NCBI GenBank assembly: GCA_963726255.1
Contig: CAVSBL010000002.1
Location: 864,001-928,000, forward strand
Direction: 5' to 3'
Length of the DNA: 64,000 nucleotides
DNA from: Candidatus Bathyarchaeota archaeon
GTDB lineage: Archaea; Thermoproteota; Bathyarchaeia; 40CM-2-53-6
The notes under the pieces were generated by a model. That model searched no databases and was not told the DNA's origin. It was given only the letters and a program-made list of their open reading frames with translations. The position numbers were made by a program, and so were the translations under genes. Shown here piece after piece: positions 7,032 to 60,230 of this stretch (positions are counted from its first letter, which is position 1; each line of letters opens with the position of its first letter).

Positions 7032-7061
7032 GTGTGTGCGCACCACTAGACCCACACACAC
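7032..7061 (+). repeat. Dispersed 28-bp imperfect palindrome (reference copy)
   Basis: GTGTGTGCGCA-CCACTA-GACCCACACAC; related copies at 8313, 8721, 34522, 35555, 45684, 47500, 49256, 59274, 60201. Confidence 0.9.
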
Positions 7062-7064
7062 TGA

Positions 7065-7111
7065 GACGACGGTTCAAATCCAGTCGCCCGCACCACCATG
7101 CCCACACACAC
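7065..7111 (+). repeat. 47-bp direct repeat copy 1 (tRNA-3'-end-like segment fused to the palindrome right arm)
   Basis: GACGACGGTTCAAATCCAGTCGCCCGCACCACCATGCCCACACACAC, identical to 7681..7727; variant at 7131..7161. Confidence 0.95.
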
Positions 7112-7198
7112 ATTTTTACGAACGATGGGCGACGACGGTTCAAATTCCGCAGGGCACACCAGAAACGCTTAAGTAACGAAAATGCACGACGCTTCGGC

Positions 7199-7618
7199 AT
7201 GAAAGCAATAGCCCTTTTCTTCCCCTTGGCTGCCTTCGTCGTCTTCGCTCAGGGCCTGACGGGAGCGTATACGGTCCTAGCCTTCTACGACTTCGGAGCC
7301 CACATGACCACTGGCTACGTGACAGGCATCTTCGCTCTGGTAGCTGTGATTCTGGCCTTTGCCGCGAAACCGAAGTACAACGCGCTGCGATACTCGTCAG
7401 TGGTCTTCTTCGCGCTCGTTGTCATACAGGGCCTCATAGGGTTTTCCGCTGAGACAAGCGACGAGATCGTGGGCATCCACTTCATCAACTTTCTAGTACT
7501 CTTCGGCATTTCCATCGCCATGGTGTTCTACGCCTTCCGATGGAACAGGATGGGAAGTGCCACCCAGCGGCAAAGCGACAGAGCGGCCGCCAGGCGGCGT
7601 AAGACGCGTACACGGTAG
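7199..7618 (+). CDS. Four-TM membrane protein with conserved-looking His residues
   Basis: MKAIALFFP...QGLTG...H...QGLIG...GIH; lies between the 47-bp repeats. Confidence 0.75.
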   Translation: MKAIALFFPLAAFVVFAQGLTGAYTVLAFYDFGAHMTTGYVTGIFALVAVILAFAAKPKYNALRYSSVVFFALVVIQGLIGFSAETSDEIVGIHFINFLVLFGISIAMVFYAFRWNRMGSATQRQSDRAAARRRKTRTR

Positions 7619-7680
7619 TAATAGAGAGACCGATATGACTAGTGTAGGTGTGCACACGCACACTTCTACTAACGAAGAAC

Positions 7681-7727
7681 GACGACGGTTCAAATCCAGT
7701 CGCCCGCACCACCATGCCCACACACAC
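7681..7727 (+). repeat. 47-bp direct repeat copy 2
   Basis: Exact match to 7065..7111. Confidence 0.95.
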
Positions 7728-7784
7728 GAAAACGACCACAAACGACGTTTCACCATAAAGCGACCGCCGGGAGTCTGACCCGTT

Positions 7785-8237
7785 TCATGCAGTATGAGGT
7801 TTCTGCCGAAGCTGCCGAAGTATGCTCCCCATGTCGAATTCTGCCCATTCCTCAACAATCCTTCCTTCCTCGATACGGGATATATCGATGAACGCAAACT
7901 TCGTTCGTGCTCCTGTGGACGGGATGCTCTGATACTCGCCTGTGTGATCTGCGTACATTTTCACACGACTTGCTACTCTGTCTCCTTCTGCTATCTGATC
8001 CTCAACGGTCGTGCGTATGTTCGAGAAAGCATAGAAGAAGAACATCTCATCATGCTTGCGACCAGTCGAGTCCATTGGCTCACCCCCACCTGGAGGATAA
8101 TATGCGTGCTTTGGGGCTAGGAACGACCAGACTGTATTCGCATCTCCCGAATCGTACGCTTTGAAATACGCTCGGATCAGGGTTTTGTTCTGTTCTCTTC
8201 GATCTCCTTCATCTTTCTGCAACTGTCTTGTCTTCAA
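7785..8237 (-). CDS. SnoaL-like ester cyclase (NTF2 fold)
   Basis: EDQIAEGDRVASR...HTGEYQSIPSTG...IEEGRIVEEW..D. Confidence 0.9.
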   Translation of the reverse strand: MKTRQLQKDEGDRREQNKTLIRAYFKAYDSGDANTVWSFLAPKHAYYPPGGGEPMDSTGRKHDEMFFFYAFSNIRTTVEDQIAEGDRVASRVKMYADHTGEYQSIPSTGARTKFAFIDISRIEEGRIVEEWAEFDMGSILRQLRQKPHTA

Positions 8238-8312
8238 ATACCTAATCCAACATGAGACCCGTCAAGTTAACAGCTTCAATGCCTGAATTCGATGCCCACA
8301 TACAAGCATTTA

Positions 8313-8340
8313 GTGTGGGTCCAATGGTGCGCGCACACAC
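8313..8340 (-). repeat. Dispersed palindrome copy (minus orientation)
   Basis: Reverse complement GTGTGTGCGCGCACCATTGGACCCACAC. Confidence 0.85.
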
Positions 8341-8459
8341 TTCAGAACGGTCCAGAGTGCAACAGGAAAGATTGTATTCGCGCGCTTAGATCAATCCGAC
8401 GAGGCTTTGATTTGGCCAGACATGAATGGCAGAGGAAACGAAAAAGAATAGTAAGCCAG

Positions 8460-8660
8460 ATGGGGCCGTCCGAAATCAAGATGGATCTAAATGAAGCCGC
8501 AAGACGTGCGGAGGCGTTCGCCAAGAGCGAGTCGGATCAGGCAGCGGTCACGGACAAATATGAAGATGCGGACTATTACGTTATCAAAGGCGTTTCCCCA
8601 AGCGGCGAATGGACAGTTATGTTCGATAAGAGAAACGGGAGAAGAGCATTCCCTCCATAA
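8460..8660 (+). CDS. Small hypothetical protein
   Basis: MGPSEIKMDLNEAARRAEAF...WTVMFDKRNG; lies between two palindrome copies. Confidence 0.55.
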   Translation: MGPSEIKMDLNEAARRAEAFAKSESDQAAVTDKYEDADYYVIKGVSPSGEWTVMFDKRNGRRAFPP

Positions 8661-8720
8661 ATGCGCGATTTTCGTGCATGTCGCACCGACCGGTCGTCCG
8701 CCGTCGTTTTCGTTTGTTTT

Positions 8721-8748
8721 GTGTGTGTGCGCACCACCATGCCACACA
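8721..8748 (+). repeat. Dispersed palindrome copy
   Basis: GTGTGTGTGCGCACCACCATGCCACACA, preceded by a CCGTCGTTTTCG module. Confidence 0.85.
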
Positions 8749-8971
8749 TAGAAAGACTGGTCCGCCTAAGTCTAAGTGAGCCTCTCGGCCGTCATGCCTC
8801 CTGACCTTGTAGTCAGTCGTCGGGGACCATCTGCACGGTCGCTGAGCACGATGCAATGCGTAATGCACCCGATGTTGGGTGCAATGCACCCCCTCAAGAT
8901 AGTGCGGACAGGAGCGCGTGTCAGCATTGCCGGCGAATATCGCTCTCTCTCAGAGCATTTCGCCTTGCATG

Positions 8972-10369
8972 CTAGTTGAAGCGTTTGCTCAAGAGCTCTT
9001 CTAGGTTCGGCGACCCCAACTCCTCGAGCTCATATCTAGCGCGAACCGCTGGTTTGTTCAAGTTCATCACTTTCCGCAGGTCAATTGGAGTTCCCACAAC
9101 TACAGCGTCACATGGTGTGGCGTTGATTGTTTCTTGGAGCTCTTTGATCTGGTGTTCACCGTAGCCCAACGCAGGTAGCACATTTGCCAAGTGCGTGAAC
9201 TTCTCGTATGCTTTTTGGATTGAGCCTACGGCAAATGGTCTCGGGTCCACAATTTCACTTGCGCCAAAGGTCTGAGCTGCTATGGTACCCGCTCCATACG
9301 GCATGCCTCCGTGAGTGACCGTTGGGCCGTCTTCGATCACGAGAACGCGTTTACCTTTCACGATTTCAGGGTTATCAAGTGTCACGACCGAAGCCCCCAT
9401 GATTATGGTTGCCTTTGGATTGACTTCTTGGATGTTTTTCCGCACGGTCTCGACATTTTTCGGGTCAGCCGTGTTAACCTTGTTTATGACGACAACATCA
9501 GCCATCCTAATGTTGGCTTCTCCAGGGTGATAGGTAAGCTCATGGTTCGGTCGATAGGGGTCAGCTACGACTATTTGTAGATCTGGTTTGTAGAAGGGTA
9601 GGTCATTGTTGCCGCCGTCCCAAATGATTACGTCTGCTTCCTTCTCGGCTTCGTGTAGAATACGTTCATAATCAACTCCAGCGTAGATCACCATACCTCT
9701 AGCTACGTATGCCTCGTATTCTTCGCGTTCTTCGATTGTACATTGGTACTTGTCAAGGTCTTGGAACGTGCCAAAACGCTCACAAATCTGCTTGGACAAG
9801 TCACCATAAGGCATCGGATGCCTTACAGCGACAACACGGTAGCCTCGATCCTGCAAGATCTTGCAGACTTTGCGGGATGTTTGACTCTTACCACAACCCG
9901 TCCGCACAGCGCAAATCGAAACCACAGGCTTCTTTGACTTGAGCATAGTGTTGGACGCACCCATTAAGCGGAAATCAGGTCCGGCAGCGATGACCGCTGA
10001 ACCCTTGTGCATCACATATTCGTGCGATACATCGCTGTACGCAAAAACTACCTCTCCGACTCCATGTTTTCGAATAATGTCCAGTAATTGGTCTTCAGGG
10101 CGTATTGGAATTCCCTTTGGATATAGTGAGCCTGCCAGTACACGGGGATAAGTACGACTCTCTATTCCTGGAATCTGAGTCGCCGTGAATGCCACAACTT
10201 CATACGCCTTATTGTGGCGGTAGAACACGTTGAAATTATGAAAATCTCTACCCGCGGCACCCATTATGACAACTTTTACAGGAGAATTCTTCGGTGAATT
10301 TCTAATTCTTCTGGATGACTGACGAGTCTTCCGCGCACGATTTGGCTTCTTCATAGACATTCTCAGCAT
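8972..10369 (-). CDS. Cyclic 2,3-diphosphoglycerate synthetase-family GTPase (start uncertain)
   Basis: MGAAGRDFHNFN, AVRTGCGKSQT, RHPMPYG, WDGGNND, EDGPT. Confidence 0.88.
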   Translation of the reverse strand: MLRMSMKKPNRARKTRQSSRRIRNSPKNSPVKVVIMGAAGRDFHNFNVFYRHNKAYEVVAFTATQIPGIESRTYPRVLAGSLYPKGIPIRPEDQLLDIIRKHGVGEVVFAYSDVSHEYVMHKGSAVIAAGPDFRLMGASNTMLKSKKPVVSICAVRTGCGKSQTSRKVCKILQDRGYRVVAVRHPMPYGDLSKQICERFGTFQDLDKYQCTIEEREEYEAYVARGMVIYAGVDYERILHEAEKEADVIIWDGGNNDLPFYKPDLQIVVADPYRPNHELTYHPGEANIRMADVVVINKVNTADPKNVETVRKNIQEVNPKATIIMGASVVTLDNPEIVKGKRVLVIEDGPTVTHGGMPYGAGTIAAQTFGASEIVDPRPFAVGSIQKAYEKFTHLANVLPALGYGEHQIKELQETINATPCDAVVVGTPIDLRKVMNLNKPAVRARYELEELGSPNLEELLSKRFN

Positions 10370-10558
10370 TCAGCGAACGGTTCCACTCAATTCGTGTTAC
10401 CTGTTGGGCGGCTAGAAACCGGTATTAGTTATCCTTTTTGTCGGAAAACTACACTTTTGGACGTATTTTGGCTGAAATGGAAGGGCACGCCCAACTTTAA
10501 AGAACAGAAGGCGAAAAGGGATTTTCCACAGATCAATGGTTTTACTGAGGAAAAATTC

Positions 10559-10977
10559 ATGTCTACCAGTTCTTCACCGGCTCCTGAACCTTCTGTTAAA
10601 CCACCGGAGAGCGACGTAAGTCGTTACAAGGTTAGGTTGGTTGTGGAGGATTACGGCGCGGCCGAGGGTGAATTGATTCGATTTCAAAGCCCAATCACTG
10701 TTGACAACTTGGCGAAAGCATTACCGTTCGAAGGTCGCGCGGCAAGGTGGAAGGAAGAAATCTATTTTGAGACTCCTGTGAAGTTGGGGGTTGAGAAACC
10801 AAAGAGCAACGTTGACGTTGGAACTATCGCTTACTGGCCCATGGGCTCGGCGCTGTGCATCTTCTACGGTACAACGCAGCCGTATAGCCCTGTCAATTTA
10901 GTTGGAAAAATCACAAGTAACCTGGAGTTGTTCGCAAAATAAAGAGTGGCACGAAAATACGGGTTGAGAAAGTCTAG
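10559..10977 (+). CDS. Cyclophilin-like fold protein (DUF369/TM1367-like); apparent one-base deletion in the A-run at ~10937
   Basis: WKEEIYFETP, IAYWPMGSALCIFYG, PVNLVGK; restoring one A gives the tail IKSGTKIRVEKV*. Confidence 0.8.
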
Positions 10978-11306
10978 GCTGCAGCCAACTTGTAGACTTT
11001 GATCCTCGCATTACCGCCGACAGATTTCACCATTCGGCGACGTTCCAGCTCCTCGAGGATATCCCTGGCAACACTGATCCTGACGTTGAACTGGGAAGCT
11101 ATGGCGTAGGGTGTGAGCGCACCCATCTTAGAGAGTTCACTCGTGAACTTGGCGTCTTCGAAGTTCGGAAGCCCTATTCCTGCGGTCTTCTTCTCGGCAA
11201 CGGTCTTACCCTTCGATTTCTTTGCTGGTTCAGGCTTCTTAGCAGCGTCTTGCTGAACCTGCTGCTTTTCCATTTGTGCTATGCTCTTCTTCTTGGCCCC
11301 ACCCAA
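10974..11306 (-). CDS. rps25e: 30S ribosomal protein eS25
   Basis: MGGAKKKSIAQMEK...LTPYAIASQFNVRISVARDILEELE; TTG start. Confidence 0.93.
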   Translation of the reverse strand: MGGAKKKSIAQMEKQQVQQDAAKKPEPAKKSKGKTVAEKKTAGIGLPNFEDAKFTSELSKMGALTPYAIASQFNVRISVARDILEELERRRMVKSVGGNARIKVYKLAAA

Positions 11307-11545
11307 TAGAAACCACTGGTAGCCGGCTACAAATGCAGCTAGATAAAAATCTTGGTCTAGGAGTTGACATATTCCAAGTAATGTGGCCGAGGGAATCGGC
11401 CCATTGAATCCACCGCCGTTCCATGTCCAGAGCGAGTATGGAACATGTTCCAGAATGGCCGATAGCCAGCAGCGTGCTGGCGCATCAAGCACGAGGCTCC
11501 TCCATTGGATAATGGACCGGTGTTAAGCTCGACAGAATAAGGCGA

Positions 11546-13493: not shown

Positions 13494-16052
13494 CTACCCG
13501 CCGAAGAAGGATTCCAGTTTTTTCACGCCTGCCAAATCCTCGAATTCTACCCCTAAAGCGTCAAGTACCTGCTCAAACGTGCCGCGTATGTATTCGACGT
13601 ATTTCTCCGAATCGACCTCGTCGAGTCTCGCAAGTTGCACCGGTTTAACTCCGGACTCACCCCGAACTTTCACGAAGGAGATGATGTCACCTGGTTTCAT
13701 TTCAGCCCCGGCTTGCTGTAATTGCCTAGCCGCTTTGACATGCTGCGGGGTGGTTTTGGTGTAATGTTCTGGGGTTCTGCTCATCATCATTGAGAAGGCC
13801 AGCTCATGGAGCGTGTATTCCTTGCTTCGCAGCTTCACGAGGCACCTTTTCACAATTTCAGTGATTTTGGTTTTCGCTATGCCGATGTCTTCTGGGGATT
13901 TGACTTCGCTCAGAGTTGAAACCATTTGGTAGAAAGCGGTATGCAAGAACTCGGGTATGTGCCTCTTTTTCCCAGTCAAACCTTTGATATCCACGCTTCC
14001 ATCAGGGAGCACGCCGAAGTAGTTTTTCTTCCTTGAGCTTAGGGCTAGGTAGCGGTAGTTCTTGTCAATCTCTAACTCCATTCTCAGTTGGTCGCGGGAC
14101 CATTCAATTAGTCTGTTTAGCGCCTTCGTATCTTGGCCTTGTAGGAATATGGAATCTGTATCCCCGTAAAAAACCTCCAAGTCTAATTCCTGAGCCTTCT
14201 GCAATGCTTGGGTTATGACGTGGCGGCCTATTGCTGCTGTAGCCTCGGCGACAGGAGGGCAATACAACGCAAAATTGTCAGCCCCGAACACGCCGTATGA
14301 TGCGTTCAATTCGACTTTCAAAGCGTCAGATACGATTTTGTACCAACTTTGCACGTTTCTTGGTAGGGTACGGTCCTTTGACCTGACTTTGTACCTGCCA
14401 ACTCGAAGATCCCTAAGCGAACCGATCAGTAAGCTCTCGAGCCCCCGTTTCTTCTTGCAAACCCAGTGTGGGGTTCCTGGAACCAGGTTTGTCTTACAAT
14501 CATCATGCGGGCACCGAACAGTCTCATAGCCGAGGTTCCAGACTTTAATGATCGAAGGGTACAGAGACGCAAAGTCGAGGACGGCGACGTTAAAGTGCAC
14601 GCCTGGCTTGGGCTCTACAACGATGGCACCTTTGTACTTCTTGCCTTTAATGACCGCTTCTGTTGTCGTTTGCCCTTTGACCTCAAGAATTTCGTCCCTT
14701 CTGGGTATCAAGTATCCGCGCTTGCGGTGATGGCAGAACATTATGCTTCGAATCCAACCCGAGACGCCCTGCCTCGAGACATCATCCAAAGTCATGTAAC
14801 TGATCCTCGAAATCGCTGTCATCAACTTCAGGACCAAGTCTTCATTGAATGAGGTTAGGTTGAGAACGATTTCGGAGTCACGGTAACAATAGGCCGCCAG
14901 TTGTCTGTAGGATGCTTTCGACACTGATTCTATCTCCACCTTTGGAGTGCCGATCAGCGCTTCACCGACAGCGTCCAACGTGTTCTCGCGGTATTTCTGG
15001 CCGAATGCGTAAATCTGAATGGACCTGTTGAAGAAGAACTTGTAAAGGTCTAAGTGAACCCCATACCTGAGAAATGCAACATCTCGTCCCAACTCAATCG
15101 GAATTTCTTCATTCCTGAAACCCAACCTTTGGGCGCGATGGTAGAGGTACTTGAGGTCGAAATCGTCGCCGTTGAATGTGACTACAATAGGATATTCCAA
15201 GAAGTTTTGGAAAAGGGCTAACAGCAACTCCACTTCAGAATCAAAGAACTCTAGTTTAACAGCTGGAGGCAGCGGAGATTCTCCATCTGATATCCCCTCT
15301 CTGCGAAGTAACAGAACCCGATTCACTCCATCTGACCCCACAAGGCTTGCGCAAATCACCTGTTGTTCCGATAATTCCGGATCGGGGATGCGTGACTCCA
15401 CTGTTTGGTGTACTTCAATGTCGACTGCAACCCTGCGGTACTGCGGCACGGGGCATTCGAGTAGCCTTGTCCATTCCTTGGCGAGCTCTTTGTATTCATC
15501 AGATTCTTCTTGAAACAGTCCTTCAATTTCCTTACTTGCTTGCTCTGGAAGTTCGTACTTGACTGGCGTGAGGCGTTTCTCTTTGAGTTCGTACATCATT
15601 CCGGGTTCGAGGCCGCGGTCGTAGATGTAGTTCTCGACATACTTTATGTCAGCCTCCCAGGCAGTTATCGAGTCTCGGATGGACCCAGTGGGCTTTCCGC
15701 CGATTGTTAGGGGGTCTTTCGCAACGATTTTCGTCACCCTTACCTGTTGGCTTCTGAGTGCATCAAATTTCTCTTCCTCTTCGAAATGGTCGAAGCCTAG
15801 GTTCTTTGCCACTGCATCGACTTTCTGAAGTTCGTTGATCGGTTGCTTGCTGTAACAGTAGGGCTTGTGGCCGGAATCATCGAACCAGAAATAGATCTTA
15901 TGCGACTTTGGCTCGTAAAGGCGCAGGAAACACTTCTTGAGGCCCCCGTCATAACCTATGGAGATTAGGTACGATGGTGGAATTGTCGGAGACGCTGCGG
16001 GAGAGAAAAGCAAGCTCTGCCGGTTCAGAAGCGGCTTCGGTGCTGGATTCAC
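13494..16052 (-). CDS. polB1: Family B DNA polymerase (PolB1 type)
   Basis: Exonuclease DIE, TFNGDDFD, YCYRD; polymerase DFASLYPSII, NASYG, YGDTDS, KKNY; PolB1-type N-terminus GHKPYC. Confidence 0.95.
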   Translation of the reverse strand: MNPAPKPLLNRQSLLFSPAASPTIPPSYLISIGYDGGLKKCFLRLYEPKSHKIYFWFDDSGHKPYCYSKQPINELQKVDAVAKNLGFDHFEEEEKFDALRSQQVRVTKIVAKDPLTIGGKPTGSIRDSITAWEADIKYVENYIYDRGLEPGMMYELKEKRLTPVKYELPEQASKEIEGLFQEESDEYKELAKEWTRLLECPVPQYRRVAVDIEVHQTVESRIPDPELSEQQVICASLVGSDGVNRVLLLRREGISDGESPLPPAVKLEFFDSEVELLLALFQNFLEYPIVVTFNGDDFDLKYLYHRAQRLGFRNEEIPIELGRDVAFLRYGVHLDLYKFFFNRSIQIYAFGQKYRENTLDAVGEALIGTPKVEIESVSKASYRQLAAYCYRDSEIVLNLTSFNEDLVLKLMTAISRISYMTLDDVSRQGVSGWIRSIMFCHHRKRGYLIPRRDEILEVKGQTTTEAVIKGKKYKGAIVVEPKPGVHFNVAVLDFASLYPSIIKVWNLGYETVRCPHDDCKTNLVPGTPHWVCKKKRGLESLLIGSLRDLRVGRYKVRSKDRTLPRNVQSWYKIVSDALKVELNASYGVFGADNFALYCPPVAEATAAIGRHVITQALQKAQELDLEVFYGDTDSIFLQGQDTKALNRLIEWSRDQLRMELEIDKNYRYLALSSRKKNYFGVLPDGSVDIKGLTGKKRHIPEFLHTAFYQMVSTLSEVKSPEDIGIAKTKITEIVKRCLVKLRSKEYTLHELAFSMMMSRTPEHYTKTTPQHVKAARQLQQAGAEMKPGDIISFVKVRGESGVKPVQLARLDEVDSEKYVEYIRGTFEQVLDALGVEFEDLAGVKKLESFFGG

Positions 16053-32720: not shown

Positions 32721-32735
32721 GAGGAGGTGAGTTGA

Positions 32736-34521: not shown

Positions 34522-34550
34522 TGTGTGTGCGCACCACTATAGCCACATAG
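34522..34550 (+). repeat. Dispersed palindrome copy
   Basis: TGTGTGTGCGCACCACTATAGCCACATAG. Confidence 0.8.
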
Positions 34551-43115: not shown

Positions 43116-43129
43116 GAATATGCTCAGGG

Positions 43130-43282
43130 TCAGCTCTTTCTCTTCTCCTTTTCCAATTCCTCACGGAGGTGTTTCAGAGCGTAGTTGATTGCGTGGCTGT
43201 AACTGCCAAACCTTAGGTCCTTAATCTCCTTGGCCACCCACGAGTAGAGCTCGTCCTCGAGCGTGATCTGAAGTCGCTTCAT
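43130..43282 (-). CDS. Ribbon-helix-helix (CopG-like) regulator, 50 aa (absent from the ORF track)
   Basis: Manual translation MKRLQITLEDELYSWVAKEIKDLRFGSYSHAINYALKHLREELEKEKRKS*. Confidence 0.85.
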   Translation of the reverse strand: MKRLQITLEDELYSWVAKEIKDLRFGSYSHAINYALKHLREELEKEKRKS

Positions 43283-43300
43283 TCGGAATCTAGGCTATTG

Positions 43301-43364
43301 TGTATACGTTAATGTTTTATGCTGAATTATACACCTATACAGAACTATACACATCATGTATACA
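43301..43364. promoter_or_regulatory. Cluster of TATACA boxes, probable RHH operator
   Basis: TGTATA at 43301; TATACA at 43328, 43336, 43346, 43359, between the divergent RHH and MTase genes. Confidence 0.6.
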
Positions 43365-45110
43365 TTTCATGAACACACTGTCAAGACCGAGCCATTCAAT
43401 TCGTTCACCCTAGAACACAGGATCCAAGATTACCTTTCTCACGAACTCCCTTATGGTGAGTACCACGGGTTCTCCGCCTCCATTGAAGGTTGGCCCAATG
43501 TTGCGAGACTGGTTCGACGACTTGCGTACGTTGCGGAGTTTTACGTTGCTACAGAGACACGAAGCGCGGAGGAGCTACTGAAGGAAATCTTCTCCGATGC
43601 GCTTAACCAGGTTAATGTCCAAACATTTGTTCACGGCAATCTTGTTGCTTTCCGTTTCATAACAAATCAGTACTTCCTAGAGAAATCTCAATACGTCTCA
43701 AAACTGAGCCGAGACGAAATTGAGGTTGATCGAAACATCGAGGCTCTAATGTCGTTCCCAGTAGAGTCAATATATCGAATACCTGCCAGTGCAACGATGC
43801 AGGTCGGAAAACGGCTTGAAGATTACTTTACAATTCGAGAAGAGCCCTCGCTGCATTTGACGCATTATTTGCATCCCTACAAAGGCAAGTTTCATCCCAA
43901 GATGATTCGGGCACTACTCAACTATGTGTACCCGGATGATAATGGCCTAGTCATGGACAATTTCGCTGGAAGCGGGACACTCCTTGTCGAAGCTGTACTA
44001 ATGGGACTCGATAGCCTCGGATTGGAAATCAATCCACTTTCAGCTCTAATGTCCCAAGTAAAGTGCGAAGCACTAAACTTTGAACCGAAAGAGCTCAGAC
44101 ACGCAATCGACCGCTACCTAGAGGCGCTTGAAACTCTCATCACCGAATACAAGACACTGCTCAACGGTGACACATTGCTTGTTCAAACCAGTGTCAACCC
44201 GACTGAAATAAAGGAAATCAAGCAACAACTTCCGAAGAAAGTCTGCGTATCATTCAATGATGAAATGTCAATCGACGCAGCTGTCGTCGCTCGGAACCTC
44301 ATTAGGACATATTTCCCCGAGAAATACCGGAACTTCCTATTGTTAGCAGTGAGCGGCACGATAAGCGATGTGGCACGGAGAACGAAAAAAGACTTCGTAA
44401 CGGCGTTAGAGGAGAGGGTGAACGACCTCTATTTGCGGATCTACTTGTTCCACAAGTTGAATGAGAAATTGAAGATCGACTTGGGTAATTCACGTTGTTT
44501 CGTCGGAGATACACGTGACATGGGAAGAACGTGCTTCACTCTGGAGGGCAAGCCCCTCAACGTTGAAGGAGAAACCATTGATGCTATAGTGAATTCGCCT
44601 CCATATTCGACTGCATTGGATTACATTAGGAACGATCTTCCCCAGCTTACCATACTTGGGCTCGTTCCGTCCCTAGAGCGTTTAGAGAAGGACATGATGG
44701 GAAACCCGAACCTCACATACTATCCTGCTGAGATGTCAGAGGAGATAAAGTCCAACGCGACTGAGTTCTCGACACTGCCAGAATACGCTAGGAACATAAT
44801 CAGACAAATTCTTGATGCTGGGAGGGTTAAGGAGGCAATACGTACTTACAAGTTCTTCAAAGACATGAGGCTAACTCTCAGAGAAATGCATAGGGTACTC
44901 AAACCAAACGCGAAGGCAGTCATAATCATCGGCAACAATCACTACAAACTGAACGGCGCGATTGAGGAAGTAAAGAACGATCTGGTGATTGTCGAGATGG
45001 CGAAGGAGGTAGGCTTCTCGCTCGACCGTTCAATCACCCGAAACCTCGAGAAAAGCATGTCTGGAGAGATTCGGTACGAATCAATAGTAATTCTACAGAA
45101 AACGAGGTGA
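43356..45110 (+). CDS. DNA methyltransferase (SPPY, likely N4-C)
   Basis: HPYKGKFHP, MDNFAGSGT, NSPPY, RVLKP. Confidence 0.9.
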   Translation: MYTFHEHTVKTEPFNSFTLEHRIQDYLSHELPYGEYHGFSASIEGWPNVARLVRRLAYVAEFYVATETRSAEELLKEIFSDALNQVNVQTFVHGNLVAFRFITNQYFLEKSQYVSKLSRDEIEVDRNIEALMSFPVESIYRIPASATMQVGKRLEDYFTIREEPSLHLTHYLHPYKGKFHPKMIRALLNYVYPDDNGLVMDNFAGSGTLLVEAVLMGLDSLGLEINPLSALMSQVKCEALNFEPKELRHAIDRYLEALETLITEYKTLLNGDTLLVQTSVNPTEIKEIKQQLPKKVCVSFNDEMSIDAAVVARNLIRTYFPEKYRNFLLLAVSGTISDVARRTKKDFVTALEERVNDLYLRIYLFHKLNEKLKIDLGNSRCFVGDTRDMGRTCFTLEGKPLNVEGETIDAIVNSPPYSTALDYIRNDLPQLTILGLVPSLERLEKDMMGNPNLTYYPAEMSEEIKSNATEFSTLPEYARNIIRQILDAGRVKEAIRTYKFFKDMRLTLREMHRVLKPNAKAVIIIGNNHYKLNGAIEEVKNDLVIVEMAKEVGFSLDRSITRNLEKSMSGEIRYESIVILQKTR

Positions 45111-45116
45111 ACAGCC

Positions 45117-45230
45117 ATGCCTGCGAGAAGTAAGAAGAAAATGCGCAAGGAGGATGTCGCAAAACTGGTTCATGAAGTCGTTGGAGAAGGTGAATTAGTC
45201 TTCATAGATCCAGAAGGAGTAGCCGGCTGA
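45117..45230 (+). CDS. 37-aa ORF coupled to the MTase, possibly a truncated gene
   Basis: SD GAGGTGA overlaps the MTase stop; MPARSKKKMRKEDVAKLVHEVVGEGELVFIDPEGVAG*. Confidence 0.4.
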   Translation: MPARSKKKMRKEDVAKLVHEVVGEGELVFIDPEGVAG

Positions 45231-45266
45231 AGATTCGCACGGTCTCGGTTATCATCTGCACGGCGT

Positions 45267-45638
45267 ATGGTGTTCACTGTGGCAGCGGGCGTCGTTTGTA
45301 ACTATGTGGCGGGTTGGTGTGCGAGAACACGACTAGATGACTCGCTTGATGTATTCGCCTGCCATGGCGCAGGTGGAATCTTGGGAACAATAGCGACGGG
45401 GATCTTTGCCTCCGCCGTCATCAATGCGGCTGGCCCCAACAGACTACTGTACGGGAACATGTACCAATTCATAATACAAGTATTCGGAGTAGTTGTCGTG
45501 GGATTTTTCGCCTTCGTAGGCTCTTACATGCTGTTAAGAATTATCAACGTCTTCACGCCCGTAAGAGTTAGTCGCACGGAAGAGGATGCGGGCCTGGACA
45601 TAACGCAACACGGCGACGAAGCGTACACAAACAAGTAA
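45267..45638 (+). pseudogene. amt: 3' fragment of a second ammonium transporter
   Basis: LDDSLDVFACHGAGG...QHGDEAY, colinear with the C-terminus of the 38712 amt; no N-terminal part. Confidence 0.85.
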
Positions 45639-45683
45639 TCATGAGGCAAGTTGAACTAAAGTCAAACAGATTCCTATTCTACT

Positions 45684-45700
45684 TGTGCGCACACACAAAA
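45684..45700 (-). repeat. Half copy of the dispersed palindrome
   Basis: Reverse complement TTTTGTGTGTGCGCACA. Confidence 0.6.
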
Positions 45701-45761
45701 AAATAAGTTGTAGAAGTATTCTATTTGTTGGCAGCTTGAAGAAAACGGCCGGTGATCTAGA

Positions 45762-46262
45762 GTGGAGAATGAACGCTCGGAGAAAGTCACCATTGACAGA
45801 GTTGAAAAAGATGAGTTGCAAAGCATTCTCGCGTTGCTTGATCAATGCGGACTTCCAAAAGAGAACTTAGAGCCTCATTTATCTACGACACTGGTTGCGC
45901 GGAACGATAGCAGGGTCGTCGGATGTTCAGTTGTGGAACTGTATGATGAATGTGCCTTGCTCGCATACGTCGCCGTTGAACAGTCATTCCAGAGACGAGG
46001 ACTAGGACAGCGCCTCACAAAAGAGGCACTAGATTTAGCAAAGCATCGTGGCGTCGGAACCGTGTATTTATTGACTGAAACGGCAGGCCCATTCTTTTCC
46101 AAACTGGGCTTCGAGTCTATCCCACGTTCTGATGTTCCACAGGAGGTTCAGCATTCATTCGAGTTTACCACATTGTGCCCAATTACCGCACAAGTCATGA
46201 GGACTTCATTGAAGGAAGAAATCGGTCACCAGCCCCATCCAGTTCAATCAAGAGAGAGATGA
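45762..46262 (+). CDS. GNAT acetyltransferase (ArsN2-like)
   Basis: QRRGLG, YLLTETA..FF.KLGF, EFTTLCP..A. Confidence 0.85.
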   Translation: MENERSEKVTIDRVEKDELQSILALLDQCGLPKENLEPHLSTTLVARNDSRVVGCSVVELYDECALLAYVAVEQSFQRRGLGQRLTKEALDLAKHRGVGTVYLLTETAGPFFSKLGFESIPRSDVPQEVQHSFEFTTLCPITAQVMRTSLKEEIGHQPHPVQSRER

Positions 46263-46391
46263 ATCCGCCACCAAGAATGACCCCTAGACTAGACTTCGGT
46301 TTGAATCCGAATCAGGTTCTAGCCAGATGTTCGCGGTCAAGATTTTTGTGCTTGAGTCGCGTCTCACGGATAGGAGTCTTCGACCAGTTCC

Positions 46392-47279
46392 ATGAACGCT
46401 AGATCCGTCGGGATTCTGTCTGTGCTTCTCGCGAGTCTTCTGTGGGCTTTGGAGCCTGTGCTTGCGAAGCGTTCGTATCAGAACTCAGATTTTCAGCGTA
46501 CTCTTGCCGTCAGAGCGATCCTCGTTACTCTTACGGCGTTGCTCTATGTTGTGATGACGAACAGAGGGAATCTTAGGATCGACAGACGCCAATTGTCGGC
46601 GCTTGTGTATGTTGCGTTTGCTGCGAATGTCTTCGGCGATATCGCATACTTCCTTGCTTTGACCCGAATCCCTGTAGTTAATGCTGTGCTGATTGGTAAT
46701 ATGCAGCCCATCTTCATAGTGATGATGGGGTTCTTGGTTCTCAGAGAAGAGAGGCTGAGCAAGTTTGACTACCTAGCGATCGTCGTTATGATGACAGCGG
46801 GAATTCTCATAGCAACTCGAAGCTTAGAGAACTTGATGGCGTTCAGGCTAGGAACGTACGGTGATTCGGTTGTGCTTTCAGCAACTGTCGCCTGGTCAAC
46901 AACCACTATCGCGTTTAGAAAATATCTGAAAGAAATGAACGCAGGCGTCGTAACGTTTTACGGCTTCCTGTTCGCTTCTCTCGTATTCGCAGCTTACCTC
47001 GTGTCCTCTTCAGGATTTAGGGCTGTGAACGTGTATCAGCTCATGATTGGGATTGTGGTTGGTATCGGCACGATTCTTTACTTTGAGGGCCTGAAGCGGA
47101 ACAAGGCTGCAGAAGTATCCTCTCTCGAACTCTCAACACCCCTCTTCGCCGCAGTCCTCGGCTTTCTTGTCTTGGGTGAGCTGGTCACTCAGATTCAAAT
47201 CGTTGGAATGTCTCTCCTCCTGATAGGAGTATTCCTCCTGTCGAGAAGAGAAGAACTAGTTCCTTATCGTTGTTGCTGA
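46392..47279 (+). CDS. EamA/DMT family transporter
   Basis: About ten TMs; QPIF...LREERL; TPLFAAVLGFLVLGE. Confidence 0.88.
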   Translation: MNARSVGILSVLLASLLWALEPVLAKRSYQNSDFQRTLAVRAILVTLTALLYVVMTNRGNLRIDRRQLSALVYVAFAANVFGDIAYFLALTRIPVVNAVLIGNMQPIFIVMMGFLVLREERLSKFDYLAIVVMMTAGILIATRSLENLMAFRLGTYGDSVVLSATVAWSTTTIAFRKYLKEMNAGVVTFYGFLFASLVFAAYLVSSSGFRAVNVYQLMIGIVVGIGTILYFEGLKRNKAAEVSSLELSTPLFAAVLGFLVLGELVTQIQIVGMSLLLIGVFLLSRREELVPYRCC

Positions 47280-47479
47280 GTATCCCCTCTTGAACTCCAT
47301 ATTCAAGAGGTGTGGCTCAAACGGAATGATTGCACGTCTAGCTGATTTGTCAAGCTCATTTTCGTGTGATTTCGTGTTCTTGTCTACGTATGGGGAAGGT
47401 AGGGTTGGGAGCGTTAGCGTGTTGCAAGCTTTCGCGTCCACGCAGTGAAACATTTTTCCCCGCGCTCACACCAACAAAA

Positions 47480-47515
47480 CCGTCGTCCGTCAGTCGATTT
47501 GTGTGTGTGCGCACC
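47480..47515 (+). repeat. Dispersed palindrome left arm with CCGTCGTC module
   Basis: CCGTCGTCCGTCAGTCGATTTGTGTGTGTGCGCACC. Confidence 0.75.
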
Positions 47516-47598
47516 TGACAGGTACTCATAATACACGAGTCGAAAATCATGCGTGCTGTTCAAATGGTGAAGGGAATAAGGAAATCGTGAGATGTAAT

Positions 47599-49137
47599 AT
47601 GACGCTGGTAATACACGGTTCAGGATTGACCGTTGAAGATGTTGTGCGCGTTGCACGTCATGGCGAAAAAGTGGAACTGCATCCCGATTCTATCAAAAAG
47701 ATCAATTCATGCCGCGCCATGCTTGAGAAAAAAGTTGAAGCTCACGAGGTCATGTACGGTGTCAATACCGGTATAGGCGAATTATCGGAGATAGTGCTCA
47801 ACGATAATCAGGTAAGAGATTTTCAGAGATATTTGATTTACAATCATGCTGCAGGTATGGGCGATCCCATGCCCATTGACTGGGTACGTGGTGCCATGCT
47901 CGGGCGCATCAATGTGCATGCACACGGGAATTCAGGTTGCCGCTTGGCGATTACTCAGACTTTGGTGGATATGTTGAACAAGGGTGTTACGCCTTACGTG
48001 TGCACGAAAGGATCTGTAGGTGCTAGCGGTGATCTAGCACCTATGGCGCAGATTGCTCTGCTCCTGATGGGTGAAGGGCACGCATATCACAAGGGTGAGT
48101 TCTTAGAGGGCCATGTGGCGATGGAACGTGCAGGCATCCCCATTCCCGGACTAGAGGCACGCGATGGTCTGGCTGCCATTAATGGTTCCAATGTGCTTAC
48201 CGCCATGTCGGCCCTAATGATATATGACAGCAACAATTGGCTCAAGCAGGCTGAAATAGCCTGTGCTATGTCGCTGGAAGCGCTGAAAGCCAACCTCAAA
48301 CCGTATCAAGAATTAATTCTTGAAGTTCGCGGTTTCCCCGGTGGCGTCCGCAGCGCGAAATCAATTCGTAAGGTAGTGGCTGGCGGTGACCTGTCTGAAG
48401 GCCGTTTAAAAGTGAAGGTGCAGGATGCTTATTCGATGCGTTCCACACCGCAGGTGATTGGTGCAGCACATGATGCGCTTGCCTTTGCCCGAGTACAGGT
48501 AGAGACGGAACTCAATGGTGTGGGGGATAATCCCATTTTCTTCCCGGACAAAAACCTCGTACTCTCAGGCGCCAATTTCCAAGGTTCGCCCGTTGCTTTG
48601 CCTATGGATATAGTAGGTGTTGCGGTAACGATGGTATGCGTACTTTCCGAGCGCCGCATGAATCGCCTGAATAACCCGGCGCTAAGCGTGGGGCTTCCGT
48701 CCTTCCTGATTAAGGATCCTGGCATGTTCTCCGGGCTGATGCTGAGCCAGTATACCGCTGATATGCAGATTGCAGAACAGCGAATCCTCTGTATGCCGGC
48801 TTCTATACAGTCAATCCCGGCTGCTGCCGACCAGGAAGACTTTGTTTCCATGGGCATGAACACCGCTCTGAAGAATTTCCAGATTCTAGACAATGCATAT
48901 GGTATTTTGGGAATCGAGTTCATGGCTGCTGCTCAAGCCCTTGACTTACGTAGAAAATATGAAACACCATATGAATTCGGAAAGGGAACACAAATTGCTC
49001 ATAACACGATCCGTAAACACGTCGAGTATCTTGATATCGACCGCCCGCTTTATCCCGACCACAACAAGATGAAGGAACTCGTCAAATCATGCGAAATCCT
49101 TGTGGACGTGGAGAAAGCCATAGGTTCCCTGGAATAA
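47599..49137 (+). CDS. hutH: Histidine/aromatic amino acid ammonia-lyase
   Basis: YGVNTG, MIO motif GASGDLAP, ING, QDAYSMR, DNP, QEDFVSM. Confidence 0.9.
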   Translation: MTLVIHGSGLTVEDVVRVARHGEKVELHPDSIKKINSCRAMLEKKVEAHEVMYGVNTGIGELSEIVLNDNQVRDFQRYLIYNHAAGMGDPMPIDWVRGAMLGRINVHAHGNSGCRLAITQTLVDMLNKGVTPYVCTKGSVGASGDLAPMAQIALLLMGEGHAYHKGEFLEGHVAMERAGIPIPGLEARDGLAAINGSNVLTAMSALMIYDSNNWLKQAEIACAMSLEALKANLKPYQELILEVRGFPGGVRSAKSIRKVVAGGDLSEGRLKVKVQDAYSMRSTPQVIGAAHDALAFARVQVETELNGVGDNPIFFPDKNLVLSGANFQGSPVALPMDIVGVAVTMVCVLSERRMNRLNNPALSVGLPSFLIKDPGMFSGLMLSQYTADMQIAEQRILCMPASIQSIPAAADQEDFVSMGMNTALKNFQILDNAYGILGIEFMAAAQALDLRRKYETPYEFGKGTQIAHNTIRKHVEYLDIDRPLYPDHNKMKELVKSCEILVDVEKAIGSLE

Positions 49138-49230: not shown

Positions 49231-49280
49231 CCGTCGTCGTTCGTCGTTAGTAAGAGTGTGTGTGGATCTACTGGTGTGCA
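49231..49280 (-). repeat. Dispersed palindrome copy with extended arm
   Basis: Reverse complement TGCACACCAGTAGATCCACACACACTCTTACTAACGACGAACGACGACGG resembles 7651..7688. Confidence 0.8.
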
Positions 49281-49383
49281 GAGCAATTTGAACTCAACAT
49301 TGTCCGATACTGACCTTAACATTTTCTGTAAGATATGTGATATTCGAAGCGTGAGTCTGACGATAAAGGCTCGCCTGACGATC

Positions 49384-51267: not shown

Positions 51268-51374
51268 ACACCCACCCCAATCATCAGCCGAAGACCAAAC
51301 AGAACCAGTCTTTCCTCCGTCGTCATAATTGAAATATTGTTATGTGAATGTCTTTGGGCTGGCTTAGTAGCAAT

Positions 51375-51399
51375 GCGGCCGCAGTCTAGCTTGGTCTAG
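51375..51399 (+). repeat. Second partial copy of the tRNA-Gly 5' end
   Basis: GCGGCCGCAGTCTAGCTTGGTCTAG vs 61550..61574, 2 mismatches in 25. Confidence 0.75.
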
Positions 51400-51721
51400 T
51401 TGGTTGTTTTGGTGAGGTCTTAGCGGCTTTGTGTTCTGGAGGGGCCTAGACTACTTCGGTATCCGCTAGTGGGCTTTCGTGTACTTCGTAGCTTTAATCG
51501 GGGCTCGTAGGATCTTCAATGCTCTCATAATTGCCCAATCTTTCAGCAAGGCCTATGCCCATTTTCCTGGATGGCTCGTGCTTGTGTTGCTTTCCTCTCT
51601 TTTGGTTACGCAATTTCCTTCGGGCTTAAGACGAGTTCCCCTTCTTCGCGGGAAAGCAGGAGGGCGGTGTGGGGCAGCCAAAACAAGTCTTGAGGAAGAT
51701 GTGTGCGTTCCCTTGGCATTG

Positions 51722-57795: not shown

Positions 57796-57847
57796 TGGCG
57801 TACTGTTTAGTACTTCTTGCATACAAAATCTCAGATGACGAGTGGGT

Positions 57848-58048
57848 CTAGTTGTCCAGGACTTCAGAGTCTATGCGAGATTGAAATTCTCGGCTTAGCA
57901 TAAGGTCGCCGATCTTGAGTTTGCCGAAGTCTTTTCTGGCTATGGCATTGCTTGTTCGGCCTACCAGCATCATTCCTTCAACGCCTAGGTTTAGGATTCC
58001 CGCATTCTGATCTACTAGTTCGCCTGTGGCGGCAGCCATGATCGGCAA
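57848..58048 (-). pseudogene. Fragment of an ABC (nucleoside-type) permease
   Basis: AATGELVDQNAGILNLGVEGMMLVG, then unrelated sequence. Confidence 0.6.
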
Positions 58049-58070
58049 GGCTCTAAATTAGAAACCCACC

Positions 58071-58934
58071 TCAATTCAAAATGAATTTTCTTACTGTTTG
58101 AAGATATTCATCCTGTTCCTCCCACATCGGCAGGTGGGCACTATTTTCGAAAATTCTCAATCTTGAACCTTTGATTGCGTGGTGGATTCCTTGTGCGATT
58201 CTTGGGGTCACCTCATCATGCCTACCACCAGTCACTAGTGTGGGAGCAGTAATCTGTGAAAGGCTAGCCTTGAAGTCCAGATTTTTGAGGTTTCCAAGCG
58301 CCGTGAATTCGTTTGGACCCCACATCGTGAAATACACAGGTACGCTTGTTTCGTTCAGTGTCCGAGTCACTTCCTCTGGCCATTGTGGTAATCTACAGAA
58401 GAATTCACGATAGAACACGTCAACAGCCTTCAGGTATTCTGGGTGTGAGAAGGCCCACTTCGCTTCGTACTTCGCAAGAGTTTCCTGAACATCCTTAGGG
58501 AGTAATGTTTTGAGCCGGTTCATTTCTTCGACGCATTCGTGAGTGCTGACCAAGGCGCCAGTAACTATTAGTTTCTTAATGTTCTGTTGGTATTTCAGCG
58601 CACACAATAGGGCTAGCATGCCACCCCACGAGGATCCCATGAGGTTTATCTTGCCAAGGCCAAGGGTCTTCCTGAGTTCCTCGACCTCATCCACGTAATG
58701 ATCGGCTGTGAAAAGAGTGGTGTCAAGTGGTTTCTGTGATTTTCCACAACCAAGCTGATCATACAAAATGACTCTCAGATTTTCATCGCCTAGCTTTGCA
58801 AGGGGGAGCAAATAGTCGTGCATTGCTCCCGGTCCACCGTGGAGACATAGCAGAACGTTACTGCCTTTGCCGAAGACTCTATAGAAAAGTCTGAATCCCT
58901 TGACGATTACATAGGCGCCGTTTTCATTCTCCAA
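58071..58934 (-). CDS. pip: Proline iminopeptidase family (paralog 2)
   Basis: LHGGPG, GSSWGG, GPNEF, GRHDE, SAH; SD GGAGGTG. Confidence 0.9.
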   Translation of the reverse strand: MENENGAYVIVKGFRLFYRVFGKGSNVLLCLHGGPGAMHDYLLPLAKLGDENLRVILYDQLGCGKSQKPLDTTLFTADHYVDEVEELRKTLGLGKINLMGSSWGGMLALLCALKYQQNIKKLIVTGALVSTHECVEEMNRLKTLLPKDVQETLAKYEAKWAFSHPEYLKAVDVFYREFFCRLPQWPEEVTRTLNETSVPVYFTMWGPNEFTALGNLKNLDFKASLSQITAPTLVTGGRHDEVTPRIAQGIHHAIKGSRLRIFENSAHLPMWEEQDEYLQTVRKFILN

Positions 58935-59273
58935 TTCCCGACACCTCCTCTATGAGATCGTTAGCTTTCTCACAGGCTTCCATAGTCTGTTGGAGCTCGA
59001 ATCTGTTCCATTCGTCATACTCTATTACCAATGTGCGCCATCCGCTCGATCAAATCATTAGTCAGACTCACAATGAACTAGCCGTCTTTCCTTCCACTCC
59101 TACTACTCCTCATACAAAATAGTTTGACGGTCGATTCACCACTACGGATTCGTTGTAGCTGTTCCGAGCAATGAATATACCAAAACTAGCGATATTTCGT
59201 CTTTTCAGGCAATTTTTGTCCAGACTTTGATGCAAAGCGGGAAGATTGAAGAGATCACAAAAATAGCTCAGAC

Positions 59274-59300
59274 TGTGCGCACGACTAATACGACACACAC
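59274..59300 (+). repeat. Degenerate dispersed palindrome copy
   Basis: TGTGCGCACGACTAATACGACACACAC followed by GAAAA, as at 7721..7732. Confidence 0.65.
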
Positions 59301-59414
59301 GAAAAACCGCAAAAGACTTGAGCAACAGCCGGCGAATACGGATAGTGCCGGGTTGGGATTTGGGCCCGCGAGGCAATTCACTAAGATGCATGCTAGTTCT
59401 CGCACTAGTTCCCG

Positions 59415-60151
59415 GTGAGGAATCGTTTGCCTGATTCTCTTGCGGTCCCCATTCTCAGACAGCTGATTCCTAGTGGTATCGATTACGGATCTTCCTTGCT
59501 CATTGAATTCGAACCCGACTCGATGTGGTATGAAACTTCGATGAGCATCGCAGCTCAAGCAGTGCGGGAAGGAATAAAGACCGTTTATCATGTCTATGCG
59601 CATCTGCCCAGCGGGGGAGGGGTACCTTCAGTCGTTTGGGCTTAGACACCAGGAAGTTGGAGGAACAGGAAGTCTTCGAACTTGTCGACAGCTACACGGT
59701 TCAAACTGGAATCGGCGGACCAGAGAAAGAATACGCCATAACCAAGTCTCTCAAGCTCTCTGAAACAAGCATCTTCTATTCGCAGGCCCTCAAGAGTGGC
59801 AAGATCCCTAAGGATTGGAAACGCTGGTTACACGTGGATGACGACGCAACGATTCAGCTGAAATACAATTCTGAGAGTGCAATAATCGAATTCCAACGAA
59901 CCAGAGGGCTCCCTGTGTTGGCAGCGTATGAGGAGATACAGTTGAATCCGATCTTGAAAGGTGTCGCCTCCGCAGCCTTCTACAAGGAGATGGAGTCACT
60001 CTCGACCGGAGTACTGGACGTCAAGAGCGAAGAGAAAGAGGGCGCCATCGAGAGCTATTTGAGAGTGAGGGCCTTGAGGGGGAAGAAGTTCGACTCACGA
60101 TGGCACCAACTGCAGCTTCAGGATAACGGAGAGGTTGCACTTGCCGACTAG
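59415..60151 (+). CDS. KaiC/RAD55-like ATPase-fold protein with degenerate Walker A; frameshift at the G-run ~59612
   Basis: [43 protein letters not shown]. Confidence 0.75.
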
Positions 60152-60200
60152 TTTTCGTGTATGCCCCCAAATTCAGACTGCTGTTCAGGCCTCGATTTAC

Positions 60201-60230
60201 ATGTGAGCACCATTAGACCCACACACACCA
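60201..60230 (+). repeat. Dispersed palindrome copy
   Basis: ATGTGAGCACCATTAGACCCACACACACCA. Confidence 0.88.

Follow-up and report, generated by a model that had tools for sequence, protein, structure and literature searches.

Casposons are known as rare, large, polymerase-encoding transposons, and their importance has lain mainly in the hypothesis that Cas1 and the repeats of CRISPR (short palindromic repeats that are clustered and regularly interspaced) descend from them. In this study, a dispersed 28-bp repeat lying beside accessory genes was analysed in a 64,000-nucleotide stretch from a Candidatus Bathyarchaeota archaeon (G000:C2:864001-928000, referred to as the window), which belongs to a 2.42-Mb assembly of five contigs. 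The repeat was considered, with a probability of about 0.76, to be the footprint of casposon-type transposition, the apparent 28-bp palindrome being the junction of back-to-back elements. The label G000 denotes the source genome and G033 a relative that is 92-98% identical over shared blocks; coordinates below 64,000 without a contig prefix are window positions.

For the casposase of A. boonei, the available text of PMC6614799 describes insertion at a tRNA 3' end, with recognition of a TCAAATC located 8 bp upstream of the duplicated segment and a target-site duplication of 14-15 bp. In M. mazei, according to the available parts of PMC4779613 and PMC6977970, the 14-bp duplication opens with an invariant and essential CGCA, in which the tRNA gene ends (last 4 bp); tandem casposons share one duplication, and both orientations and solo ends occur. 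The accessible text of PMC4779613 also reports an overlap between the casposon target and the attachment (att) site used by a tyrosine-integrase element. For the same species, it has been described that excision leaves one target behind, that tandems form and that engineered mini-casposons are mobilised (PMC10359463, partial text). Among gene-cassette systems, mobile integrons were undetected in archaea according to the available part of Krupovic et al. 2019. No unit of the kind described below, namely a natural, cargo-carrying, non-autonomous or polymerase-less casposon arranged in arrays, was found in a literature search that had subscription journals and supplements outside its scope. Casposons were paired with Bathyarchaeota only in an unrelated mention and with 'MITE' (miniature inverted-repeat transposable element) not at all, and the words 'non-autonomous' were used in other contexts in the available text of the casposon papers examined.

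Anatomy of the repeat and comparison with known systems

The consensus 28-mer occurs exactly at 7032-7059, and two more copies with at most three mismatches were detected at 8311-8338 (minus strand) and 35553-35580, where 0 were expected from 100 shuffles. A loose regular expression for the motif returned 698 mostly spurious matches and was dropped. A profile made from the copies gave 54 matches genome-wide (E<=0.02), all clustered on contig C2, and the strict definition given below recovered 60 sites, which places the copy number in G000 at about 54-60. By crude gene calls, 48 of the 54 profile matches were intergenic on a contig with a coding fraction of 84%, and the six 'inside' calls include over-extended open reading frames (ORFs), such as a GTG-start ORF at 7016-7618. 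No profile match was found between 8748 and 34520, a stretch of housekeeping genes. In these respects the preliminary description of the locus was borne out: every full, half or degenerate copy that it listed was found, the arms of the 7032 copy are complementary at 8 of 11 positions, the copies are intergenic with none clear among the housekeeping genes, and the cargo genes proved by domain annotation to be as it described them, with SnoaL, two alpha/beta hydrolases, GNAT, EamA, an aromatic amino-acid lyase and a weak KaiC-like protein. KaiC-like paralogues are a recurrent cargo, 5 of 12 being flanked by sites. Relatives, which it had also suggested scanning, were searched with the core pattern. 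Of 18 further genomes sampled from the genus, 17 contain it, at 2-52 copies each, and it has 21 copies in a genus that belongs to another family; a reversed-pattern control gave 0-1 matches. Records carrying the exact 28-mer are titled Candidatus Bathyarchaeia or Bathyarchaeota. Two contigs with the exact 28-mer (L060 and L061) are filed under the bacterial names Acidoferrum and Methylomirabilota and are probably mis-binned archaeal contigs.

When all copies were aligned with their flanks, the site was resolved into a 7-14-7 arrangement, which consists of a right terminus GTGTGTG, a 14-bp segment CGCACCA-N4-ACC (N, any base) and a left terminus CACACAC. In the palindromic class these modules follow one another as GTGTGTG-CGCACCA-N4-ACC-CACACAC, and the gap between GTGTGTG and CACACAC, which the 14-bp segment fills, is 14 bp in every full junction. 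In the leader class a sequence resembling a tRNA 3' end (...CGACGG-TTCAAAT-N9-) takes the place of the left arm and precedes CGCACCA-N4-ACC-CACACAC. Of 21 leader-type copies, 20 have 9 nt between the end of TTCAAAT and CGCACCA; counted from TCAAAT(C/T), 8 bp precede CGCACCA. The 60 sites of G000 comprise 12 with right terminus, 14-mer and left terminus, 16 with leader, 14-mer and left terminus, 22 with right terminus and 14-mer only, and 10 with 14-mer and left terminus only. Palindromic arms are present in only some copies, the true inversion is limited to 7 bp per arm, and the 16 leader-type sites have no left arm, so that the 11-6-11 geometry of Xer/dif sites that had been read into the repeat did not hold.

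Inverted termini (CACACAC...GTGTGTG) were found in all full junctions, and some elements have imperfect inverted ends of about 25-33 bp. Because copies are alike over only about 45-75 nt, a long body of a MITE or insertion sequence (IS) was rejected. Displaced halves of real tRNAs were rejected as well, because the genuine tRNA genes of G000 encode CCA but carry no CACACAC after it. In 6 of 38 left termini genome-wide, the element contains a target of its own (TTCAAAT + 9 nt + CGCA) at 36-52 nt from its end, as compared with 25 of 5000 random 90-mers (0.5%).

The following course of events is proposed for this anatomy. A casposase, that is, a Cas1-family integrase, would recognise a tRNA-3'-end-like target composed of TCAAAT(C/T), 8 bp and CGCA, and would join both 3' ends of the element (...GTGTG-3') to the two borders of the 14-bp target segment, which would then be duplicated by gap repair. 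Repeated insertion into the same or a duplicated target would leave neighbouring elements separated by one shared 14-mer, which would read GTGTGTG + CGCACCA-N4-ACC + CACACAC, and a site would lack its left arm if a tRNA or tRNA-like leader stood directly upstream of it. On this reading, most elements in G000 are non-autonomous: they measure from about 50 bp to a few kb, lack cas1 and hold one or two cargo genes. Since some elements carry a leader and CGCA target in their own left end, arrays could spread and grow away from real tRNA genes.

The elements resemble family-2 casposons (MetMaz, AciBoo), as far as the available parts of the sources describe these, in the tRNA 3' end as target, with CGCA at +1 to +4 and the T-loop motif TCAAATC 8 bp upstream, and in a putatively duplicated segment of 14 bp starting with CGCA. 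They are also alike in the single copy of this segment between tandem elements, in the occurrence of both orientations and solo ends, and in a casposase of about 400 aa with a C-terminal domain, and terminal inverted repeats are present here too. They differ in that they are mostly tiny, lack cas1, hold one or two unrelated cargo genes, number about 50-60 junctions per genome and in some cases bring along a leader and CGCA target of their own. The mini-casposons of M. mazei, in the partial text of PMC10359463, likewise consist of cargo between casposon ends and target copies, are served by casposase in trans, leave a single target on excision and form tandems; those were laboratory constructs, whereas the elements here are natural, numerous and arrayed. 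Integron arrays and pdif modules are similar in that single accessory genes lie between short conserved sites, vary between strains and can be acted on by an enzyme in trans. In contrast to these, G000 has no tyrosine recombinase, its cassettes are not uniformly oriented and its site is composed of terminus, putative duplication and terminus. The hallmarks of integrons (IntI beside attI, attC sites, uniform orientation) and of Xer/dif or pdif systems (two arms of about 11 bp, a 6-bp centre, a Xer recombinase) were not found in G000; no attC-like folded site was seen, although no dedicated attC folding model was used. As in CRISPR arrays, a leader-adjacent target would be duplicated with each Cas1-type insertion, which gives the order leader, repeat, insert, repeat. 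Unlike in CRISPR arrays, the inserts are gene-sized with fixed termini, the repeats are 14 bp long, and no Cas2 or effector genes were seen beside the 16 Cas1 loci examined.

Candidate enzyme and strain differences

No casposase was found in the window or elsewhere in G000, but 12 of 22 other genomes of the genus have Cas1, in solo ORFs 401-414 aa long (about 405 aa) and with as many as 11 matches. The best solved-structure match was 6opm_A (E = 4e-69, query 36-403 of 404), given in the structure search listing as the M. mazei casposase, and the best match to a CRISPR Cas1 structure was far weaker (4.5e-21). Full-length casposases from several genomes are 60-78% identical to one another. Many of the casposase genes in relatives are fragments, and fragments were also found in the other motif-bearing genus (g11). 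At 11 of 16 Cas1 loci, motif copies occur no more than 5.5 kb away. Neither Cas2, Cas4 nor a family B DNA polymerase (PolB), the mark of 'self-synthesizing' casposons, was seen among 10 annotated Cas1-neighbour ORFs (from the 16 loci, with not every long ORF annotated).

One relative holds a complete Cas1 element of 8.6 kb (G014:C3). In this element, the leader GTTCAAATC (TCAAATC) and 8 bp are followed by CGCACCACTATACC, by CACACAC...Cas1...GTGTGTG and by an identical CGCACCACTATACC, directly after which the left terminus of the next element begins. Its ORFs encode a 410-aa Cas1, an NT5C-like protein, a peptidase A4 and hypothetical proteins; none exceeds 410 aa, and there is thus no PolB. Identical flanking 14-mers were found in 4 of 31 candidate elements against a background of 3.1%, and these four include the G014:C3 Cas1 element and the window element at 7719-8729. 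Because G000 encodes neither a tyrosine recombinase nor Cas1, the acting enzyme must work in trans, as the preliminary description had supposed, and the window elements could only be non-autonomous members of the casposons. This enzyme is likely to be a casposase, which we infer to be both the catalyst and the mobiliser of cargo elements in trans.

The sites also coincide with differences between G000 and G033. When sites were listed automatically by the strict definition, 12 of the 50 internal boundaries of homology fell no farther than 20 nt from one, where 1.3 were expected (binomial P about 6e-9); five more coincide, as judged by eye, with a degenerate site, a half site or the tRNA. The window sites concerned are 35553, 47502, 49280, 59274, 60227 and 61638, and those in other clusters are 438868/438882, 445378, 447147, 449628, 1839314, 1839860, 1840863 and 1359519. 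The claim that the sites bound strain-variable accessory DNA was supported in this way. The KaiC-like gene with both flanking sites (59274-60227) forms one block common to G033, with 94.6% identity and different surroundings. At 61638, the tRNA of G000 reads ...GGCGGC/CGCACCA and then continues into its native flank (the slash marks the junction), and the same flank in G033 is preceded by ...GTGTGTGTGTG/CGCACCA, where ...GTGTGTG stands directly before CGCACCA. The predicted partner junction was found in G033, in which this tRNA runs into CTAG-ACCCACAC (0 mismatches). Junctions of a tRNA with a left terminus were found in up to 13 of 23 genomes (<=3 mismatches), some of them without a convincing terminus, and the control gave 0. 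Among the G033 contigs C80, C180, C198 and C130, several end at or a few tens of bases from a motif copy, so the repeat probably breaks short-read assemblies. Of seven insert ORFs from G033:C198/C180, six have no Pfam match and one is 3-demethylubiquinone methyltransferase-like; no recombinase was found among them by Pfam.

Further alleles were obtained from Logan contigs of four metagenome runs, which were placed on window 4500-11500 and in which rare circular or excised forms are invisible. In a 1,675-nt X4 contig, and in an X5 contig that comes from another study, 7061 is joined to 8750 with nothing in between. This allele retains exactly one site (7032..7061) and has lost all three cassettes, which is the single 'empty' site that the preliminary description had anticipated. 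X2 also holds a form joining 6659 to 8870 (shorter side 28 nt), and X5 holds one without about 6777-8797. A joint from 7060 to 8716 (side 21) and opposite-strand joints probably derive from other repeat copies. Every module edge of the site has breakpoints on it, so that no exact crossover point can be fixed.

Weighing of the explanations

Several observations weigh against casposon-type transposition. No Cas1 was detected in G000 (no PF01867 match, no tblastn hit better than E = 0.38), nor in G033, despite the many differences between the two at sites, and recent mobility therefore needs an outside source of the enzyme or another process. Cas1 counts do not follow motif counts, since full-length Cas1 is missing from G011, G013 and G017 in spite of 25-47 motif copies (G011 has casposase fragments only), and variable islands could carry Cas1 as one cargo among others. 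In G014:C8, the junctions on the two sides of the solo Cas1 are inverted and not direct. Flanking 14-mers differ in 27 of the 31 candidate elements, and those at the occupied tRNA of G033 (CGCACCACTAGACC on the left, CGCACCACTTCTTT on the right) agree in the first nine bases only. The last three bases of the 14-mer (ACC) are conserved beyond the expectation of pure duplication, so ACC may belong to the terminus and the true duplication may be shorter. Because the spacing from T-loop to CGCA is set by tRNA structure, the independent coincidences are only the junction position (tRNA nucleotide 70) and the 14-bp gap. The termini here (...GTGTG-3') differ from those of M. mazei (...CCC-3') in the accessible sources. 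Finally, 38 of the 50 breakpoints lie off strict sites. They include the outer edges of a 2.2-kb island (6662-8869) that holds three cargo genes and all copies at 7-8.7 kb; this island is missing from G033, whose empty site has no motif, and the deletion edges lie off motif copies. The expected coincidence of gene presence/absence breakpoints with the motif was thus seen for some breakpoints and not for others. The missing Cas1, the differing 14-mers, the conserved ACC and the inverted junctions at G014:C8 might be explained by later homologous recombination among repeats, by an enzyme in trans or by a shorter true duplication.

Part of this evidence would suit relic transposon ends, with present gene gain and loss brought about by homologous or illegitimate recombination between 30-60-bp repeats. 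Neither G000 nor G033 has a casposase, G000 has no integrase (G033 has two integrase matches), breakpoints fall at every module edge and not at one crossover point, most flanking 14-mers differ, and many casposase genes of relatives are fragments. Core and termini are nevertheless strongly conserved across the genus and a second genus, full-length casposases have been kept in several genomes and perfect duplications exist, and we regard relic ends as unlikely. Another explanation is that the sites are att sites of tyrosine integrases targeting tRNA 3' ends, with arrays formed by repeated integration and integrase-less cassettes moved in trans. The core is indeed a tRNA 3' end, a triad resembling attB, attL and attR exists, the four-transmembrane (4-TM) segment has 47-bp perfect direct repeats as att duplication would give, and PF00589 integrases occur in 19 of 22 other genus genomes. 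Moreover, a viral contig from IMG/VR (L078) encodes a 363-aa tyrosine integrase about 270 nt from a leader-type site (13755-13777), and 3 of 20 genus homologues of this integrase adjoin tRNAs ending in CGCACCA. The virus may use the same tRNA-like target. However, PF00589 was not detected in G000 (the control was positive in 14 of 14 genomes), and the 1.5 kb on either side of the 20 best integrase loci in other genus genomes contain no motif copy, nor do those around the 20 loci of the homologues. Integrase att sites leave unexplained why the termini are inverted, why the gap is 14 bp and why the Cas1 element has 14-bp direct repeats, and the viral case is accounted for by the overlap of casposon target and integrase att site already known at one tRNA (available text of PMC4779613). 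Such an origin seems quite improbable to us.

The Xer/dif, pdif or integron mechanism favoured in the preliminary description was given up in view of the lack of PF00589 in G000, the lack of an orientation rule and the casposase-like anatomy, and its idea of an integrase gene with a neighbouring site found no example in G000 or at the 20 + 20 integrase loci of the genus. Of its mobile cassettes, the boundaries of strain-variable DNA stood, and the Xer-type or integrase enzyme gave way to a likely casposase. It is scarcely credible that the motif serves regulation or acts as RNA (as an operator, promoter or terminator, a small RNA or a processing signal) and travels with accessory genes. The strictly intergenic position and the mostly common orientation with KaiC-like paralogues would agree with this, but genome-wide the profile matches are not biased towards either orientation and keep no set distance from gene starts or stops, by which a promoter, operator or terminator was rejected. 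Rfam gives only tRNA matches, no consistent hairpin was seen by eye in leader-type copies, and strain breakpoints sit on the motif.

Other recombinases were surveyed in the same genomes. The enzymes of a serine-recombinase or IS200/IS605 system were scarcely detected in the genus: serine recombinase PF00239 exceeded the cut-off only in G009 (0 motif copies), with one sub-threshold match in G001, and the Y1 transposase PF01797 (IS200/IS605, REP/RAYT-like, where REP stands for repetitive extragenic palindrome) was found only in G003. Six tyrosine-recombinase matches stand in tandem over about 12 kb in G013:C16:1240-12959. The viral contig L078 is tailed-virus-like, its integrase has a C-terminal zinc ribbon, and a KaiC-like fragment lies beyond the site. 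In viral contigs, no right-terminus-type junction was found and two leader-type sites were, one of them beside the integrase; Pfam yielded nothing informative for the other record (G036).

With casposon-type transposition as the preferred explanation, casposon-type chemistry appears to have been turned to a new use, with dozens of short, enzyme-less, cargo-bearing units per genome in arrays that adjoin tRNA-like leaders and coincide with gene-content differences between near-identical strains. It is conceivable, although we would put this somewhat below even odds, that a casposase-driven cassette platform exists in this Bathyarchaeia lineage, in which a large population of natural mini-casposons shuttles single accessory and defence genes into self-carried tRNA-like landing pads and so gives arrays of leader, 14-bp repeat, insert and repeat. 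Such a platform would be a functional counterpart of integrons and a living structural analogue of the proposed intermediate between casposons and CRISPR arrays. If true, archaea would possess a cassette-exchange system comparable in role to integrons, non-autonomous casposons would exist in nature, and natural arrays would be at hand in which a short repeat next to a leader is duplicated again and again by an enzyme of the Cas1 family. A postulated step in the origin of CRISPR arrays would then become testable with real sequences and a tractable enzyme.

Features of the window

The features of the window are listed in Table 1. The array at 7-8.7 kb starts with the junction at 7032-7061, which is followed by a left-end stub and leader, the 14-mer 7089-7102 and the 4-TM mini-element 7103-7652. 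A second stub and leader, the 14-mer 7705-7718 and the SnoaL element come next, then the inverted junction 8311-8338, the small-ORF element and finally the right terminus with its 14-mer (8721-8743). The segments 7065-7111 and 7681-7727 form a perfect 47-bp direct repeat (100% identity), which together with three copies of the same 14-mer argues for recent events in this array. The 4-TM mini-element contains an unoccupied leader-like target at 7131-7160. The composite element 7719-8729 has imperfect inverted ends and identical flanking 14-mers (CGCACCACCATGCC) at 7705-7718 and 8730-8743. In G033, the place of 49255-49293 is taken by a junction of the right-terminus type, beyond which the DNA is unrelated.

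Table 1 Sites, elements and target genes in the window
Feature	Position	Strand	Details
Exact 28-mer junction	7032..7061	+	Right terminus 7032-7038 GTGTGTG; 14-mer 7039-7052 CGCACCACTAGACC; left terminus 7053-7061
Leader-type site	7065..7111	+	TCAAATC 7074-7080; 8 bp 7081-7088; 14-mer 7089-7102 CGCACCACCATGCC; left terminus 7103-7111
Mini-element, ~550 bp	7103..7652	+	Gene for 139-aa 4-TM protein 7199-7618; boundaries inferred from termini; start CACACACAC; end degenerate GTGTAGGTGTG (7642 copy)
Second identical 47-bp leader + 14-mer + left terminus	7681..7727	+	14-mer 7705-7718
Composite cargo element	7719..8729		SnoaL 7785-8237 (minus); small ORF about 8460-8660
Inverted junction between SnoaL part and small-ORF part	8311..8338	-	Right terminus + 14-mer + left terminus
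Array right end	8721..8749	+	Right terminus 8721-8729; 14-mer 8730-8743; degenerate left terminus
Junction with degenerate left terminus	34522..34550	+	Downstream of alpha/beta-hydrolase gene 34582-35445 (minus)
G000-specific 270-bp segment	35553..35822	+	Opens exactly with junction copy 35553-35580; absent from G033
Half-site GTGTGTG + CGCAC	45684..45697	-	Weak profile match, E = 0.39
Half-site, right terminus + CGCACC	47498..47515	+	Upstream of lyase gene 47503-49137; G000/G033 homology resumes here
Leader-type site	49255..49293 (copy 49255-49280)	-	Sole copy with 7 rather than 9 nt spacing
KaiC-like cassette	59274..60230	+	Degenerate junction 59274-59302; gene 59636-60151; junction 60201-60230
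Genuine tRNA gene	61550..61644	+	3' end CGCACCA 61638-61644, an unoccupied target; occupied in G033

The tRNA genes of G000 encode CCA and most have introns; ARAGORN reports 35 of them as compared with 18 by the Rfam tRNA model, and tRNA-based target inventories are therefore incomplete. The 5' ~36 nt of the 61550 tRNA recur in partial copies at 43080-43115 (95% identity) and 51373-51409 (73%), and a G000/G033 breakpoint (51349) lies about 25 nt upstream of the latter. The idea of a split tRNA was rejected, both copies being plain partial 5' fragments, which suggests older integrations at the 5' side of this tRNA. A 523-bp segment (32495-33017) that is absent from G033 and bounded by 26-bp inverted repeats (32493-32518 and 32994-33019) looks like an unrelated MITE-like insertion. 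A restriction-modification cluster at 40723-45110 consists of an N6/N4 methylase (40723-41679), a DpnII-like endonuclease (41752-42999, minus) and a second methylase (43356-45110), and the stretch 41680-47501, which holds most of it, is replaced by different DNA in G033. A 345-nt inverted repeat with 72% identity (38718-39062 and 45282-45626) corresponds to an ammonium-transporter gene (39019-40032, minus) and a C-terminal Amt fragment (45267-45638).

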